IMG/VR virus record: IMGVR_UViG_2923967841_000001
Origin: a virus
Strand: one strand, 5' to 3'
Length of the DNA: 64,000 nucleotides
Position numbers and translations under genes: made by a program. The notes beneath the pieces are model-generated. The model searched no databases and was not told the DNA's origin. It saw only the letters and a list, made by a program, of their open reading frames with translations. Positions within the stretch are counted from its first letter, which is position 1. Every line of letters starts with the position of its first letter. Of the stretch, positions 3,879-53,554 are shown piece after piece.

Positions 3879-3918
3879 CAAGAGTTTTTCAGAAATACAG
3901 TAAGAAAAAACCTGTTCG

Positions 3919-3937
3919 CACCCACAAAACACCCACA
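3919..3937 (+). repeat. 19-bp direct repeat CACCCACAAAACACCCACA, copy 1 (putative integrase arm site)
   Basis: Identical to 4837-4855; two CACCCACA units with an 11-bp period. Confidence 0.85.
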
Positions 3938-4016
3938 TTTTGTCTGATTTTAATTTATATTTATAAATTTCAATTTTGTTTAAGTAATATACTCAAATTG
4001 AAAGTCTTGATTAAAT

Positions 4017-4766
4017 ATGAAAAATAAAACTTTAATAAAAATAATTATTATTGGATTATCAACTTTCATTTTTCTAACAGGTTTCAACTTATATAATCAA
4101 AATGCTGAGAGAGAAGCTAATTTTGCTGAAACAGGATACTTAGAGACTAATTCTGAGCGTTCTGCTAGGGAACAAACAGAATATGAGGCTAAAGTAAAGG
4201 TAGAAATTTGTATTGAGGAAAACAATATAGCTCTTGAGCCTATTGTTTTGGTTTATAATAATATCGTTGAGAGAAATAATAAATTTGTTGCCTATTATGA
4301 TTTTTTATTTAGACATCAGACAAATCCCCAAAATAATACACCTCAATTGGATAAATTAGTTCGTGACATTGAAAATACTTTTCCCACAGGAGAATATTAC
4401 TTACCTAACCCACGTTTATCGCCAGTGAAATACACTTACAAAGGTAAACCTTTAAAGTCAACTTGGATAAGTAGACTCTACGAACCTTTATTTGATACTG
4501 ATGATTATTATGAGTTGGGCATAACCAGCAGTGATTTATATATATTTTACTATTGGCGTATTCAAGATTTATCTGAAGCACTAGACGAATCTGTGCATGG
4601 ATGGAAAGTTTGGGCACTAGGCTTTGATGATTATTCAAGACAATGGGGAGAATATTTCAAAATTGCTTTGAGAACTAGAAATAGTAACAAGATTTATTAT
4701 GAACAAGCATTGGCTAACTATTTATCATTACCAAGTGTAGATTCTTGGTGTGACTCCTATTTTTGA
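4017..4766 (+). CDS. Hypothetical membrane-anchored or exported protein (cassette cargo)
   Basis: 249-aa ORF with an N-terminal K-rich then hydrophobic segment (TLIKIIIIGLSTFIFLTGF); no family recognised. Confidence 0.7.
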   Translation: MKNKTLIKIIIIGLSTFIFLTGFNLYNQNAEREANFAETGYLETNSERSAREQTEYEAKVKVEICIEENNIALEPIVLVYNNIVERNNKFVAYYDFLFRHQTNPQNNTPQLDKLVRDIENTFPTGEYYLPNPRLSPVKYTYKGKPLKSTWISRLYEPLFDTDDYYELGITSSDLYIFYYWRIQDLSEALDESVHGWKVWALGFDDYSRQWGEYFKIALRTRNSNKIYYEQALANYLSLPSVDSWCDSYF

Positions 4767-4836
4767 ATAAGTTAAACAAATAAAAATAGTGTTGGAACAG
4801 TAATTAATTTCTCTAAACGAAATAAGTAACTAATCA

Positions 4837-4855
4837 CACCCACAAAACACCCACA
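4837..4855 (+). repeat. 19-bp direct repeat CACCCACAAAACACCCACA, copy 2 (putative integrase arm site)
   Basis: Identical to 3919-3937. Confidence 0.85.
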
Positions 4856-4873
4856 AATTTTCTAAAACTGTAG

Positions 4874-4959
4874 ATACTCTCTGATAACCTCTGATATCTT
4901 TTTGAGAGAGCTTAAGTTCATTAACCCTATAAATTGATACGCTCTAATACTCTCTAGTA
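4874..4959 (+). repeat. Two pairs of 10-bp tandem repeats, consensus ATAC(T/G)CTCT(G/A)
   Basis: ATACTCTCTG-ATAACCTCTG at 4874-4893 and ATACGCTCTA-ATACTCTCTA at 4937-4956, between the arm repeat and the att core. Confidence 0.6.
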
Positions 4960-4973
4960 TTAATTGGTTCTTT

Positions 4974-5019
4974 CCTTACAAGGAAGAAGTCACAGGTTCA
5001 AATCCTGTAGCGCCCACAA
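4974..5019 (+). repeat. tRNA-Val 3' fragment (att-site duplication)
   Basis: CCTTACAAGG...GCGCCCACAA, 46/46 identical to 3836-3881; starts in the anticodon arm. Confidence 0.95.
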
Positions 5020-48768: not shown

Positions 48769-49437
48769 TTAATAAATCATGTGATTGTCTTTTAATTTTT
48801 TTAAAATCAAGGGCATACTTGATTGATTTAAATGAATTCCAGTTCCATAATCATCTAAAAAATCTACATTAGTACTGCCATCTTTATTAAGCATTTCCTC
48901 AAATATTGATATGAAAGCAATGTTGTTCTCTAGACATTTTTTTTCCAGATACTTATTAAACAACCTTGTAATATTATTTCTTTCAATATTCGTACCAAAA
49001 GATGGTCCACTATATGGTTTTTCCACGGACCAACTTGCAATTGGGGCAAAAATAGATTTTCTTATTTTTCTAATAGGTTTTACCTCCACAACTGTAGAAA
49101 TATATCTATCAACACACTCTTTAATGATCAGCTCAACATCCTTTTTTTGTAATTGAGATTGTTTAATTATATGAGCTCTAATATCTACTTCCCCAAAGCA
49201 GAAGAGAACAAAGGAAGTTCTTAAGTAAAATGTTCTATTGAGTACAGAGTTTAAAAGATCAATTTTTTTATGTAAATTATAAGCAGTAGCTGGGCCAATC
49301 CTAACTGGTTTAAATTTGCTTAATAATCTAAATTCTTTATCTGGCCATTGAGAAATAATTCTTTCCTCTTTTGAAAAGACAGAACTGTGGCTGTCTCCTA
49401 AGCAAATTATCATTGATTTAATTTTAGTCCTCAACAT
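48769..49437 (-). CDS. SGNH/GDSL hydrolase-like protein (possible sugar O-acetyltransferase or esterase)
   Basis: CLGDSH, FGEVDIR, DDYGTGIHLN. Confidence 0.65.
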   Translation of the reverse strand: MLRTKIKSMIICLGDSHSSVFSKEERIISQWPDKEFRLLSKFKPVRIGPATAYNLHKKIDLLNSVLNRTFYLRTSFVLFCFGEVDIRAHIIKQSQLQKKDVELIIKECVDRYISTVVEVKPIRKIRKSIFAPIASWSVEKPYSGPSFGTNIERNNITRLFNKYLEKKCLENNIAFISIFEEMLNKDGSTNVDFLDDYGTGIHLNQSSMPLILKKLKDNHMIY

Positions 49438-49475
49438 AATTTTAATTATCGAGATAAAATTTGTGTATTATAAAC

Positions 49476-49519
49476 GTGGCTAGAGGCAGAATCGAATTAC
49501 TGACCCCTTGTTTTACAGA
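49476..49519 (-). repeat. Degenerate tRNA-Phe 3' fragment (att scar 3)
   Basis: 39/44 identical to 53400-53443. Confidence 0.9.
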
Positions 49520-49547
49520 TATGGGCTAACTATTTGGTATAAGTTGA

Positions 49548-50300
49548 TTATAACTTATAAATAATAAGTTGACCTAAATGATTTGGAATAACAACTAATT
49601 GTTTGTTTTGCTTTAATTCATTTCCAAATTTAGTAATTCCGTCTGTAAACCAACCTCCATAATCATCTAATATTATCATTGCTCCGTTAATTGAATTATT
49701 AAGTAAAAAATCAAGGCTTTCTTTAGCTGAAACGTATGTATCAACATCAATATGAGCAAATGAGATTGGTTTGTTAATAACAACATTGTTAATGCTGTTA
49801 GGAAATATACCCTCTACAATATTGAATTTTTGACCAGTTTTATTTTCAACTTCTCGAACATCATTAGGGGTTGCATCTTTATATTCAGAATTTTTAAAAA
49901 AAGTATCTTCTTCTGATGACCCAACTACTCCGCTAAAAGTATCACAAACAAAATAATCTATATTCTTATCTTTGTTTGCTAATGAAACTAGACCAGAAAC
50001 ACCACCTTTCCAAGATCCTACTTCAATAAATGATGAATTATCAACAAGGTATCTTTTCGACATTTCAAATATGGTAAATAGTCTTGATTTAGGATTTAAA
50101 GTATAGTTTTTAATTATTTCATAGTTCTCAGTAAATTGCTCATCTGTTTTCCAGGGTAAATAAAAATATTCGAAAATTTCAATACCGTAATCTTTTCGCT
50201 CTTCTTTATATCTAAGATTTATCTGAAACAATTTAAATAAAAATTTAGTAATTAAATCTAATTTTTTCCGTGCTTTAATGACTTTTTTAAGATTAAACAT
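49548..50300 (-). CDS. TylF/MycF/NovP-family sugar O-methyltransferase
   Basis: FIEVGSWKGG, CDTFSG, GIFPNS, SFAHIDVDTY, ILDDYG. Confidence 0.8.
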   Translation of the reverse strand: MFNLKKVIKARKKLDLITKFLFKLFQINLRYKEERKDYGIEIFEYFYLPWKTDEQFTENYEIIKNYTLNPKSRLFTIFEMSKRYLVDNSSFIEVGSWKGGVSGLVSLANKDKNIDYFVCDTFSGVVGSSEEDTFFKNSEYKDATPNDVREVENKTGQKFNIVEGIFPNSINNVVINKPISFAHIDVDTYVSAKESLDFLLNNSINGAMIILDDYGGWFTDGITKFGNELKQNKQLVVIPNHLGQLIIYKL

Positions 50301-50342
50301 TTGTGGCCAGAGGCAGAATCGAACTGCCGACCCCTTGTTTTT
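50301..50342 (-). repeat. tRNA-Phe 3' fragment (att scar 2)
   Basis: 42/42 identical to 53398-53439. Confidence 0.95.
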
Positions 50343-50484
50343 TAAATAAAGGACAACCTTGTGACCTTTAGTAATTGTAACTTATTCCTAGTTAATTATC
50401 ACTCATTTGTGAGAGGCTTTAAAAAGTTTATGGAGTTTCTGGACTTGCTAAAGAGTTTTGTATTGCGAGATTAGTTTTGACATT

Positions 50485-51189
50485 TTAAATTCTTTTTTTC
50501 ACTGCTTTTTGCAATAAAAATATAACTGCTTCAAGAATAATTTTGTAGTTCATTTTAGAGGTTCCATAAAATCTATCTTGAAAAATAATCGGCACTTCTT
50601 TAATTTTGTAATTATTTTCTTCTATAAAATTTGTTATTTCTACTAGAAAAGCATACCCGTTTAATTTTGGGTTATAGTTTATTATTTCATCAACTACTTT
50701 TTTATTCAACAATCTAAAACCACTTGTTTGATCTTTAATTTCAGATTTAAAAACTAACCCACAAAGCTTGTTCGCATATTTTGATAAATACTGCCTTCTT
50801 TTAGGCCAACCACTTGTGCCGCCACTAGGAACATACCTACTTCCAATTACTAAATCATAATTATTTTTTTCATTGATCAATTTTGTCAAATCTTCGAATC
50901 TATGAGAAAAATCAGTATCCATTTGTACAAAATGATAATAATTATTTTTAATACCCCACTTATAACCTTCAATTATCGCTGATCCATAACCAAGCTTTCC
51001 AGATCTTTTTAGAATTTTAACCGAATCGCGACTTTGCATATTTTTTTCAACAATTGTTGCTGTACCATCAGGTGAATTGTCATCGACAATTAACAGATGA
51101 ATCTCTTTAAAGCTATCTGTAGACTCTATAAATTTTTGGATATTTTCTGATTCGTTATAAGTAGGGGTAATTAATAAAATTTTTTCCAT
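50485..51189 (-). CDS. Polyprenol-monophosphomannose synthase-like GT2 (Ppm1/DPM1/GtrB-like)
   Basis: PTYNESENI, VDDNSPDGT, KLGYGSA, QMDTDFSH, GSRYVPSG, DQTSGFR, EVPIIFQDR. Confidence 0.88.
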   Translation of the reverse strand: MEKILLITPTYNESENIQKFIESTDSFKEIHLLIVDDNSPDGTATIVEKNMQSRDSVKILKRSGKLGYGSAIIEGYKWGIKNNYYHFVQMDTDFSHRFEDLTKLINEKNNYDLVIGSRYVPSGGTSGWPKRRQYLSKYANKLCGLVFKSEIKDQTSGFRLLNKKVVDEIINYNPKLNGYAFLVEITNFIEENNYKIKEVPIIFQDRFYGTSKMNYKIILEAVIFLLQKAVKKRI

Positions 51190-51193
51190 TCTA

Positions 51194-52369
51194 TTAACCC
51201 AACGCAGATTGTAATGTTAATTGGATACTTTTTAGGACTCTATAATAATTTGAAGAAACTGTAGTTCCTCTCATTTCCAAACAACATTCTGGCATAATTG
51301 TCAACAACGAGACCAAGATAAATGCTCCTATTGCTAAAGACCAAGTTTTATTATTGTTTATTTTGTTACTTAAAATTAAGAAACTAAAAAAACATAAATG
51401 AAATAAAGAAAAAATCCACCTTCCCCAATCAAAACCAACAATAAATAAAATTGGAATTACTATAAAGTATTTTTCCTTTAATAAAAAATCTTTTACTGTA
51501 ATAAAACTAAGGTTCAGTTTGTTTAGTTCAATTTTAAATATTGCTATAAAAGTCCATATAAATATTGCAAAATAAAATGACCACAAAAACATAGACCCTG
51601 AAAAAATTAAGACTTGTGTAGTTTTAAAAAAAGAGTCGAATAAAGACCAGCCTATTGCAGTTATAGCATTCGGTTCTATACTTATTTGGCTTCTATCAAA
51701 TTCACTAAGACTACTCCATATTATATTTGATGCAGCATCATTTCCTGCACTTAAAATTACGCCTGTAAAAGCCAGCAGAATAATTGCTGAATAAGTTTTT
51801 ATATAATATTTAGAAAAAGAAGTTTTTTTCTTAAGAATTAAAACGATAAACGCTATTGTAATCATAGCAATTCCCTCATGAATTAGGATCATCAAAATAG
51901 AGAGTGTCACAGTAGTAATAAAAGTTATATTGGTTTTTATGTTAATTTTGATAATTAACAATGTAATCATAAATAAATTCAGCACAAACATTTCTTTTCT
52001 GTGGTAGTACTGATTGAACATGGTTATGTTAAATATTCCAAAGATACTTATTAAGTAAAGCAAATGTTGTAAAGGAGTTAATTTGGAAATTTTTATATGT
52101 GCATAAGAAAGCAGAGTAAAAATAATAAAATTTATGAACAGAAAAATATTTACAGTGTCAAACAAAATTAAATCAGAATCTATTAAAGTAATTAATTCTC
52201 CTAAAAAACCTCTTCGTGTAAAAAGCCCTGGGTAGGAAATTATTAGTTCTGAATAAGACCAAGGCGAGTATTCTAAAGTATCTGATAATATTGTTTTTTT
52301 TGCAACCTGTGCAATCGAAAAAAAATACAATAACAAGTTTATAAGATTAGTTGTTTTCTTTAATTTCAT
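51194..52369 (-). CDS. Polytopic membrane protein, possible GT-C acceptor-side transferase
   Basis: About 10 TM segments; FTRRGFLGE, RKE, IHEG, FDWGRW; ends 4 bp before the polyprenol-P-sugar synthase. Confidence 0.5.
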   Translation of the reverse strand: MKLKKTTNLINLLLYFFSIAQVAKKTILSDTLEYSPWSYSELIISYPGLFTRRGFLGELITLIDSDLILFDTVNIFLFINFIIFTLLSYAHIKISKLTPLQHLLYLISIFGIFNITMFNQYYHRKEMFVLNLFMITLLIIKINIKTNITFITTVTLSILMILIHEGIAMITIAFIVLILKKKTSFSKYYIKTYSAIILLAFTGVILSAGNDAASNIIWSSLSEFDRSQISIEPNAITAIGWSLFDSFFKTTQVLIFSGSMFLWSFYFAIFIWTFIAIFKIELNKLNLSFITVKDFLLKEKYFIVIPILFIVGFDWGRWIFSLFHLCFFSFLILSNKINNNKTWSLAIGAFILVSLLTIMPECCLEMRGTTVSSNYYRVLKSIQLTLQSALG

Positions 52370-52419
52370 ATTGATTAGTCTAGTTCAGCTTTTGGGTTTT
52401 TATTTTGATAAACCATAGC

Positions 52420-52469
52420 TTGTGGCCAGAGGCAGAATCGAACTGCCGACCCCTTGTTTTTCAGACAAG
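52420..52469 (-). repeat. tRNA-Phe 3' fragment (att scar 1)
   Basis: 50/50 identical to 53398-53447. Confidence 0.97.
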
Positions 52470-52585
52470 GGCAAACCTTATGACCTTGTATCAGTTTAGG
52501 TTATTCTATTTGATTTTACGCTCGTTATAGACAGGCTCTCAATGATAGCTCGTATAGAACGAAACACTATTCAATAGTGAGCGTG

Positions 52586-53347
52586 TTAAAGTTTTTTTAA
52601 TACAACCGAGTAATGATGATATAAAATTTCATAAGTCCCTTTATTTTCTTCAAGGTAATCAAGAACGTATCTACCATTTCCGGGTATAAAATCTAAGTTA
52701 TTTTTTTCATTAGTTCCCCACAACTCAAAGTTATTTGGAGTGTCGTCAATAGCAACAATTGTTCCTTTTTTAACATGTGCATCAACCAATAAGAATTCTT
52801 TTAGTACATGATTCTGGGCTGAGTGGGGAAACTTTAAATCAATTGGAACACTATCTAAAAATACAATATCTAATTTACTTAAATAACTTGGTTCTAGTTT
52901 TTCAATGTAATCTACTGAATCATAAGTATGAAACTTTACATTTTTATTCTCAATAAATTCATAAAAAGATTTTATATCTGGGTTTATGTCGACTGTATTA
53001 AACGAACCACCAAATTTAATAACATAACCTGCAAACAGCATTGAACTTTTTGAACCATGAGCAGCACTACCAGTTTCTAGAATATTAAGGCTTTTACCCG
53101 AAAAGTGATTTAAAACTAAAGTAAACATATCTCTATTAATATGAGACAACACACTATATGTGTCAAAATGAAAATAAATTAATTCTTCTATAGATTTAAC
53201 TTTTTTTATATTTTCAATTAAGAATTGATTTGTATTAATTTTTTTTAATTTTCTTTTATTGAAATAAGTATTTTTTTTAATTAAACAAAATTTAATAATA
53301 ATTTTTAACTGTGTTTTGATTTTCAATGGAATTAATTTTTTAATCAT
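52586..53347 (-). CDS. Class I SAM-dependent methyltransferase-like protein
   Basis: ILETGSA, TVDIN, DSVDYI, VFLDS, EFL, VAIDDT. Confidence 0.65.
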   Translation of the reverse strand: MIKKLIPLKIKTQLKIIIKFCLIKKNTYFNKRKLKKINTNQFLIENIKKVKSIEELIYFHFDTYSVLSHINRDMFTLVLNHFSGKSLNILETGSAAHGSKSSMLFAGYVIKFGGSFNTVDINPDIKSFYEFIENKNVKFHTYDSVDYIEKLEPSYLSKLDIVFLDSVPIDLKFPHSAQNHVLKEFLLVDAHVKKGTIVAIDDTPNNFELWGTNEKNNLDFIPGNGRYVLDYLEENKGTYEILYHHYSVVLKKL

Positions 53348-53400
53348 CGTTTAAATTTTAGTCTTCAAAATAGCTTTATCTATTTGATAAAAATTAATTG

Positions 53401-53473
53401 TGGCCAGAGGCAGAATCGAACTGCCGACCCCTTGTTTTTCAGACAAGTGCTCTACCGACTGAGCTATCTGGCC
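53401..53473 (-). tRNA. trnF: tRNA-Phe(GAA)
   Basis: Reverse complement GGCCAGA...TCTGGCCA; anticodon arm CTTGT-CTGAAAA-ACAAG; T-loop GTTCGATTC. Confidence 0.97.
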
Positions 53474-53479
53474 TTAAAG

Positions 53480-53554
53480 CGGGGACGACGGGATTCGAAC
53501 CCGCGACCTCCTGCGTGACAGGCAGGCGTGAACTCCAGACTTCACCACGCCCCC
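53480..53554 (-). tRNA. trnD: tRNA-Asp(GTC)
   Basis: Reverse complement GGGGGCG...CGTCCCCG; anticodon arm CCTGC-CTGTCAC-GCAGG; GTTCGAATC. Confidence 0.95.

Follow-up and report, generated by a model that had tools for sequence, protein, structure and literature searches.

Tandem gene cassettes at an Actinomarina tRNA-Phe gene as the probable footprint of serial site-specific integration

Introduction

The 64,000-nucleotide stretch IMGVR_UViG_2923967841_000001 (the whole of which is called here the window) carries three small gene cassettes (A, B and C) lined up behind an intact tRNA-Phe gene and each closed by a copy of the 3' end of this tRNA. The array probably records serial site-specific integration at this gene in Candidatus Actinomarina, and its units are likely non-autonomous relatives of integrase-bearing elements of ~9 kb. 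The window is the glycotype island fGI1 (flexible genomic island 1) of a Candidatus Actinomarina single-cell genome. Actinomarina count among the smallest free-living bacteria of the sea and also among the most abundant, and their glycan island varies by strain, probably under phage pressure.

Small cassettes located at the tRNA genes of fGI1, with ends formed by partial-tRNA repeats, have already been described (Lopez-Perez et al. 2020, PMC7771536), so that the array as a phenomenon is not new. The same work reported a total lack of identifiable mobile elements in Actinomarinales genomes. More recently, the tRNA-bounded hypervariable region was confirmed in a preprint for which the integration mechanism is still being sought ('Actinomarina, resolved', bioRxiv 10.64898/2026.04.03.716425), and neither study names an integrase or a mobile element. 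In 2013, a phage fragment was reported whose attachment (att) site matches Actinomarina tRNA-Val. According to the searchable literature, the mechanism of cassette integration is not published, and three features presented here appear to be new: integrase elements of the tRNA-Phe site, a conserved arm with lineage-specific motif pairs, and clean mini-attP cassettes, empty or with a single gene, that are nearly identical across species.

Results

Anatomy of the array

The intact tRNA-Phe(GAA) gene (53400-53473, minus strand; ARAGORN and Rfam) forms an attL-type site, and the att core (53398-53447) comprises 48 nt of the tRNA 3' end plus 2 bases downstream. Three fragment copies follow on the same strand and in the orientation of the tRNA. 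Copy 1 (52420-52469), the attR-type site of cassette A, is identical to the core (50/50 versus 53398-53447); copy 2 (50301-50342) matches at 42 of 42 positions; and copy 3 (49476-49519), the outermost and most diverged, at 39 of 44. These figures of the original prediction were reproduced exactly by script, and its units of about 1.0, 2.1 and 0.8 kb with one or two genes correspond to measured start-to-start spacings of 978, 2119 and 827 bp, with 1-2 open reading frames (ORFs) per unit, all of them on the tRNA strand. Perfect repeats of 42-50 nt in 64 kb are far above chance expectation.

Cassette A (52470-53397, minus strand) consists of a short left arm (53348-53397), a gene for a 253-aa protein (52586-53347) and a conserved right-arm module (52470-52549). 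Cassette B (50343-52419, minus strand) contains two genes, encoding a 391-aa polytopic membrane protein (51194-52369) and a 234-aa GT2 glycosyltransferase (50485-51189), followed by its right-arm module (50343-50428). Cassette C (49520-50300, minus strand) carries a 250-aa TylF-type gene (49548-50300); it has no left arm at all, the ATG of the gene abutting fragment copy 2, and its reduced right arm is overlapped by the gene end. The same junction between core and ATG occurs in the related loci L131 and L111. All three units are tightly packed, with 36-56 nt from gene end to arm and left arms of 0-52 nt.

The fragment copies had also been said to become shorter or more mismatched away from the tRNA. 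The outermost copy does display five mismatches, but fragment length (50, 42 and 44 nt) had to be rejected as a decay clock, since the left limit of identity is set by the arm of each cassette; only the five mismatches of the outermost copy speak for age. If older units are pushed outward, the outermost fragment would correspond to the tRNA end of the original chromosome, in agreement with units that grow older outward. Separately, the 41 nt past the intact tRNA (53343-53383) and past the outermost fragment (49409-49449) are 78% alike (repeat D3). This resemblance has no explanation under a simple insertion model and may come from AT-rich chance or from a shared motif of the left-arm/start region.

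The claim that no recombinase lies in the 64 kb holds. Pfam detected no integrase, resolvase or transposase among the 58 window ORFs of at least 110 aa, and a tblastn search of the window for remnants of the elements described below, using four integrases, their replication protein and their 291-aa protein as queries, gave nothing better than E=0.15.

A conserved arm next to the core

Just upstream of their fragments, cassettes A and B are 75% alike over 123 nt. A 135-position profile covering an arm of ~85 nt plus the core was built from aligned tRNA-Phe loci of relatives. In nhmmer searches it aligns near full length with cassette A (52549-52422, 119.8 bits) and cassette B (116.3 bits), and partially with cassette C (model positions 53-135 only); the full arm module is present in most units of relatives. 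Within the 64 kb, the profile matches only the tRNA and its three copies, revealing no older att scars. The arm-plus-core does not fold better than shuffled sequence (z-scores of -0.69, -0.75, +0.39 and -1.90), and the arm belongs to no Rfam family besides tRNA. On these two grounds, a structured-RNA reading of the arm was rejected, and the arm would rather be a protein-binding DNA.

The att sites can be mistaken for tRNA genes. Rfam scores window positions 52423-52485 (copy 1) as a tRNA at 33 bits, above the tRNA threshold, and ARAGORN calls attR-type sites as tRNA-Phe genes of 79-82 nt in several relatives (L099:7664-7742, L100:5952-6031, L101:5460-5539, L102:6409-6488 and L156:4674-4755), because the core-proximal part of the arm imitates the tRNA acceptor strand. 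Such att copies may inflate the figures of 39-52 tRNAs per genome that have been published for this group.

Variation of the array among relatives

The core is found in 55 of the 65 family species genomes, at 1-4 copies each, and tandem arrays on a single contig occur in 21 genomes, with spacings of 0.2-4 kb. We catalogued 35 units from 28 loci. Their size ranges from 208 bp to 4.1 kb (one composite reaches 8.6 kb), and they carry FkbM, TylF, other methyltransferases, GNAT, HhH-GPD, DUF2231, transporters and unknown proteins. Of 48 cassette ORFs that reach 100 aa, 39 run in the direction of the tRNA, and a complete integrase is found in none of the 35 units. Cassette content and order differ between related genomes. 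For instance, a homologue of the cassette A methyltransferase occupies the second array position in G031; in other genomes, 8.6 to ~13 kb separate the TylF gene from the tRNA, and the gene may or may not be preceded by a core. The start of homology to the window coincides with the core or with the start codon right behind it, and the homology of cassette C to four other genomes stops at the TylF stop codon. The expectation of variable cassette number, order and content with shared boundaries is thus borne out, the breakpoints falling exactly on the tRNA fragments, and serial insertion at tRNA-Phe is supported by the variation in copy number, content and order among relatives.

A family of ~9-kb elements with an integrase

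In nearly every genome of the family, the only tyrosine recombinases are two Xer-like proteins. An exception is locus L093 (G021), where the outer cassette (cassette 2) ends in a 145-aa C-terminal integrase stump located directly upstream of the arm. A HMMER search with this stump retrieved full-length relatives of 388-398 aa (P0002-P0004, 52-65% identity) together with many short fragments, and the exact 398-aa integrase sequence is encoded by 13 contigs of Tara, JGI and Logan assemblies. A tyrosine recombinase is present in the related elements L131-L138, L153 and L156-L158. The gene order of the ~9-kb elements runs from variable cargo, an AAA_25 RepA/primase-helicase-like protein, an HTH_17 excisionase and a small HTH_3 protein (repressor-like by annotation) on the left to a 281-291-aa protein, the 388-398-aa integrase, a non-coding stretch, the conserved arm and the core on the right. 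A tyrosine recombinase going with the arrays had been anticipated; a matching integrase family is carried by these ~9-kb elements, which have the same core and arm.

One of these elements, L132, has a core-to-core length of 8,994 bp and a terminal overlap of 55 nt. In L133 and L135, which come from different metagenomes, the sequence reads from the arm through the core into the left end of the element (94-96% identity). The same reading is found in L156, L157 and L158, which represent three other integrase lineages and whose arm motifs match across the junction. The five loci are attP junctions, derived from either circles or tandem copies, and together with L132 they speak for elements that are active or recent. 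In L153, the order is tRNA-Lys, tRNA-Asp, tRNA-Phe, a 9,021-bp element, core, a 1.5-kb mini-cassette and again core, and in L131 the arm and core of the element abut the TylF start codon that is found at window position 50300. Together with the shared core and arm, L153 and L131 indicate that the ~9-kb elements use the tRNA-Phe site of the cassettes. Their replication/excision module is absent from the window units; L132 and L153 carry the AAA_25 helicase and the HTH_17 excisionase along with differing cargo. The integrated 9-kb element of L153 encodes a 1138-aa Mrr-nuclease/ResIII-helicase protein with HA domains (L153:3713-7129). In PADLOC, this protein matches type IIG/type I restriction models over the N-terminal 600 residues of the models, and it is likely an anti-phage cargo.

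Matched motif pairs in the arms

The arms of the integrase-bearing elements and of the spreading mini-cassettes described below contain a motif of 8-9 nt that varies between lineages and matches within a unit. It forms a tandem pair with copies ~11-12 nt apart, located in the left arm at ~+28 to +60, and the pair recurs in the right arm at ~-181/-170 from the unit end. Each integrase-bearing lineage has its own motif: CTGCGCAAC in L132, TTAGAAC in L153, TCTACGA in L156, GAGAACA in L157 and AATGAACA in L158, where one copy reads AGTGAACA. Several cassettes devoid of integrase have a like anatomy, with CTGTCACA in a 665-bp unit, CCGCACACA in a 992-bp unit and CTGGGACA in a 208-bp unit. The latter (L102:6281-6488, G047) is devoid of ORFs; it is made up of a left arm, one CTGGGACA pair, the conserved arm and the core, and could represent a minimal attP. 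In all, 8/40 units have pairs that match between the two arms. These motifs are putative arm-binding sites of the integrase. In the window, cassettes A and B retain the proximal arm, and the distal arm of cassette B aligns with cassettes of the CTGTCACA type, with degraded sites.

Near-identical mini-cassettes in divergent species

A cassette of 665 bp is 98.6-99.5% identical in four species representatives, the adjacent 3 kb being 68-76% identical. Similarly, a 797-bp cassette is 99.2% identical between flanks of 72%, and a 992-bp cassette 98.8% identical between flanks of 70.5%. Each spreading cassette and its divergent flanks were read on a single contig. In extended alignments, high identity ends at the right core, and its left limit lies at or near the left core, beyond which only tRNA genes or, in one pair, ~80 nt of the arm of the preceding unit are shared. 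The near-identity of integrase-less mini-cassettes across divergent species makes their movement with an integrase provided in trans plausible. The 665-bp cassette holds one 127-aa gene, which is VanZ-like by language-model features only. It is the first unit in three arrays and the second in two, which is consistent with later insertions beside the tRNA. Finally, a hybrid cassette in L121 (L121:5659-6312, G058) combines the left part and gene of the 665-bp family (~91% overall) with a right arm of another family (CTGTGCCA pair), which suggests recombination between cassettes.

Integrase stumps are present in 2/40 units, namely cassette 2 of L093 and cassette 1 of L162. The cargo of the latter is of the glycan type (a cytidylyltransferase, a HAD phosphatase and an HMGL-like enzyme), and this unit has the features of an intermediate between a full element and a cassette. 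A slightly bigger deletion in either unit would produce a clean cassette like those of the window.

Cassette genes and their presumed function

The 253-aa protein of cassette A has a weak Pfam match to Methyltransf_24, under the curated cut-off, and the 250-aa protein of cassette C is a TylF-type O-methyltransferase (Pfam TylF, 4.7e-10). In cassette B, the 234-aa protein matches GT2 (PF00535, 7.6e-25) and, among PDB sequences, dolichol-P-mannose synthase (3e-29), ArnC and sll0501, whereas the adjoining 391-aa membrane protein has no Pfam match; its language-model features resemble Rv1490/DUF6056-type membrane proteins, which is a lead only. The GT2 enzyme is thus presumably a polyprenyl-phosphate glycosyltransferase similar to dolichol-P-mannose synthase, ArnC or GtrB, and together with its neighbor it could attach a branching sugar on the outer side of the membrane. 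The two methyltransferase cassettes may methylate sugars or other envelope components, and the three cassettes might jointly modify the glycotype, whose variation has been tied to phage evasion (PMC7771536).

Host island and other att sites

The assignment of the window to fGI1 relies on several features. The exact cassette proteins are encoded on contig CACJPS010000001.1 of GCA_902595365.1, and the nearest relatives of a flanking sugar transferase are found in Candidatus Actinomarina single-cell genomes. The G+C content (GC) of the window is 27% (22-31% over most of its length), and the region between tRNA-Val (3805) and tRNA-Asp/Phe encodes glycosyltransferases, sugar epimerases, a Wzy-like protein, an ABC exporter and methyltransferases. 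The window is therefore a low-GC, tRNA-bounded envelope-glycosylation island, as is fGI1 of Ca. Actinomarinales with its 43-79 kb, ~28% GC and glycosylation genes (Lopez-Perez et al. 2020, PMC7771536). Immediately upstream of tRNA-Phe lies tRNA-Asp(GTC) (53479-53554, minus strand; ARAGORN and Rfam), and this tRNA pair is also present in relatives.

At the other end of the island, tRNA-Val is associated with an integrase-less cassette of 1.1 kb (3882-5019, plus strand), which contains one 249-aa ORF without Pfam match and a terminal perfect 46-nt copy of the tRNA end. Pairs of CACCCACA are located at 3919/3930 and 4837/4848, the latter corresponding to -182/-171 from the cassette end. The arms of this cassette look intact and have the geometry of the tRNA-Phe family, unlike those of the Phe cassettes of the window.

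Other recombinases were noticed in related contigs. In G052 (contig 3), a 366-aa integrase stands beside tRNA-Val at the far end of the island, ~70 kb from the tRNA-Phe array (L095:5482-6900), with a tandem pair CCCCCAC (opposite strand) ~60 nt from the tRNA-Val end; this locus can be regarded as an integrase-bearing element of the tRNA-Val type. In G012, a 336-aa integrase next to a tRNA-Leu is enclosed by two tRNA-Ile copies (L096:3844-8882); it probably belongs to a further integrative element, inserted at the tRNA-Ile hot spot of which PMC7771536 speaks. In L138 (L138:1313-3266), a 388-aa integrase, 52% identical to the L093 stump, is convergent with tRNA-Phe ~710 nt away, with no arm detected, and may reflect a second element arrangement at this tRNA. 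Viral contigs gave 0 matches to the exact 38-nt core pattern, diverged cores being outside the reach of this pattern.

Discussion

Our results point to serial site-specific integration as the likely origin of the tRNA-Phe array. Recombination would take place in a core that extends from the anticodon loop to the 3' end of the tRNA, and would be catalyzed by a lambda-type tyrosine integrase that is encoded outside the window and belongs to the family of the ~9-kb elements. Each insertion would regenerate the tRNA and push older units outward, so that the TylF cassette (C) would be the oldest and the tRNA-adjacent cassette (A) the youngest. The spreading mini-cassettes of relatives are presumably mobilized by a cognate integrase acting in trans, or co-excised with a neighboring element. 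The data directly show the repeats, the common arm, the variation among relatives, the integrase-bearing elements with their attP junctions and the near-identity of mini-cassettes in different species; trans-mobilization, binding of the 8-mers by the integrase, the order of events and an effect on surface glycans are what we infer.

Several observations weigh against this scenario, most of them concerning the window itself. The integrase is absent from it, and cassettes A, B and C have no arm motif pairs. The five metagenome contigs with identical proteins all have the cassettes in one order, and nothing shows that these units ever moved as mini-cassettes. Among the 65 species genomes, the best amino acid identities to their genes are 56%, 35% and 76% (the last within a range of 50-76%); such distant homologues give no support to a recent transfer of the three units. 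For the family as a whole, the arm-core-left-end junctions could stem from tandem copies rather than circles, and, as some of the species genomes may be metagenome bins, chimeric assembly at the shared 50-nt core might occasionally have occurred, although every cassette shares one contig with its divergent flanks. The N-terminal match of the integrases to an AP2-like domain, the arm-binding fold of lambda-type integrases, is weak (E=4e-4, under the Pfam cut-off). Lastly, the 20 public runs consist of Logan contigs, which break at the repeated core. Core-core joints in these contigs have sides of 21-31 nt, which are unreliable, and no excision or empty-site junction was counted. In one run (X5), the contigs cover cassette B and leave parts of A and C uncovered; this hints at cassette B in other backgrounds, although such contigs cannot show absence.

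The alternative that keeps most weight, while rather unlikely, is decay in place. Each window unit would be the remnant of an integrase element of ~9 kb or larger, reduced by internal deletion with no mobilization in trans, as described for remnants in Prochlorococcus islands (Hackl et al., bioRxiv 10.1101/2020.12.28.424599). Since cargo is on the left of the elements and the mobility genes on the right, a single deletion would give exactly the layout of the window units, and the stumps just upstream of the arm in L093 and L162, the latter with glycan cargo, look like such deletions caught halfway. The decayed arms and island-like GC of the window cassettes go in the same direction. However, the three units are tightly packed, and tblastn detected no trace of the integrase, the replication protein or the 291-aa protein in the window. 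Moreover, stumps are restricted to two of the 40 units, whereas many mini-cassettes are clean and several have clearly spread as such. The original prediction would have been undermined if each unit could be traced to a decayed large integrase-bearing element. This is partly the case: as a class, the cassettes do trace to such elements, as the stumps in two relatives illustrate, but these are of ~9 kb and not large.

For the window units, the choice between arrival as ready-made mini-cassettes and trimming in place is nearly balanced, with a slight preference for the former. Their GC content (27-28%) is that of the island, compared with 28-39%, and mostly at least 34%, in units with matched arm pairs. 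Given this island-like composition and the loss of the motif pairs, the window cassettes are most likely old, immobile members of the family that are now fixed. The idea of a trans-acting integrase that serially loads cassettes is supported as a mechanism of the family, where near-identical mini-cassettes occur across species; the units of the window look fixed and old instead of actively loaded.

Homologous recombination as the sole process is a highly improbable explanation. RecA crossovers between the 42-50-nt fragments (plus the ~85-nt arm) after DNA uptake would dispense with a dedicated integrase; the perfect core repeats are long enough for low-frequency exchange, most genomes possess no integrase beyond the two Xer-like proteins, and the L121 hybrid does join two cassette families. 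Nevertheless, the first duplication of the tRNA end requires site-specific integration, and RecA exchange would not select the matched motif pairs that are kept at fixed distances. In addition, integrase elements with the shared arm and core exist and are found at attP junctions. As for an integron-like or Xer platform, in which a resident recombinase (one of the Xer-like proteins or an unrecognized enzyme) would insert cassettes without promoters next to the tRNA, by analogy with IntI at attI or with Xer-exploiting elements at dif, the tiny co-oriented cassettes, the start codon abutting a core and the Xer-like proteins as sole tyrosine recombinases of nearly all genomes do not save it from being scarcely credible, since no integrase adjoins the array, the tRNA-derived cores have lambda-type arms instead of attC hairpins or dif-like 11-6-11 sites, the arm is not unusually prone to folding, and a dedicated integrase family with the arm of the cassettes exists.

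Beyond the origin of the window array, we tentatively consider a two-tier system, in which rare ~9-kb elements would coexist with commoner mini-attP cassettes of 0.2-1 kb that parasitize lineage-specific integrases through the arm motifs and fossilize in the glycotype island. Such cassettes, with one gene or none between two complete arms, would ferry single genes between species. If this possibility proves true, no smaller class of non-autonomous site-specific integrative elements would be known, and these cassettes would provide the missing mechanism for the tRNA-bounded hypervariable regions of small-genome plankton. The integrase family with its attP anatomy, the attP junctions in metagenomes and the cross-species cassettes make this mechanism directly testable.

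Among known systems, the closest is fGI1 of Actinomarinales itself (PMC7771536), which concerns the same organism group, island and tRNAs and shares with the window array the partial-tRNA repeats and the variable content. Compared with that work and the 2026 preprint, we add the conserved arm, the motif pairs, the 9-kb integrase elements and the cross-species identity of mini-cassettes. The tycheposons of Prochlorococcus carry a tyrosine recombinase, an excisionase, replication genes and variable cargo at island tRNAs; partial tRNAs alone stand between neighboring elements, older elements are displaced inward by newer arrivals, and the remnants include degraded integrases and supernumerary partial tRNAs (bioRxiv 10.1101/2020.12.28.424599). 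The window array resembles them by its location at a tRNA with full and partial copies in a streamlined marine bacterium. It differs in that its units encode no tyrosine recombinase, which is found only in the related elements. Furthermore, the host belongs to another phylum, and the units of the cassette family are much smaller (0.2-2 kb), many of them being clean, integrase-less, provided with complete arms and still spreading.

Cis-mobilizable elements (CIMEs) are flanked by att sites, lack recombination and transfer genes, are kin of an autonomous element at a shared site, stand in tandem with it and can be moved by its integrase; their accretion and mobilization with integrative and conjugative elements are known in streptococci. 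In a similar manner, the core and the ~85-nt arm are common to the window units and the 9-kb integrase elements, and the window units are devoid of integration, excision and transfer genes. In addition, L153 has an element and a mini-cassette in tandem, and near-identical mini-cassettes occur in divergent species. Differences are that no conjugation genes were seen in the helper elements, that cassettes are limited to 1-2 genes, that the motifs vary between lineages and that mobilization is presumptive here.

A GtrB-like GT2 enzyme and a polytopic membrane protein next to an att site also make cassette B reminiscent of the Gtr modules of temperate phages, where GtrA, GtrB and GtrC lie beside attP. 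No GtrA-like flippase was found, cassette B contains no gene of GtrA size, and no phage is present; this analogy is functional only. Finally, the rows of mostly co-oriented, promoter-poor one-gene units without a recombinase of their own recall integrons, as the original prediction put it. This label is dropped here: there is no intI or other resident integrase by the array, no attI and no attC-type hairpin, the att sites are of the lambda type with arm repeats, and the integrase resides on a separate mobile element. By analogy with these systems, the tRNA-Phe array of Actinomarina is thus best viewed as an accretion of the tycheposon or CIME type and not as an integron.

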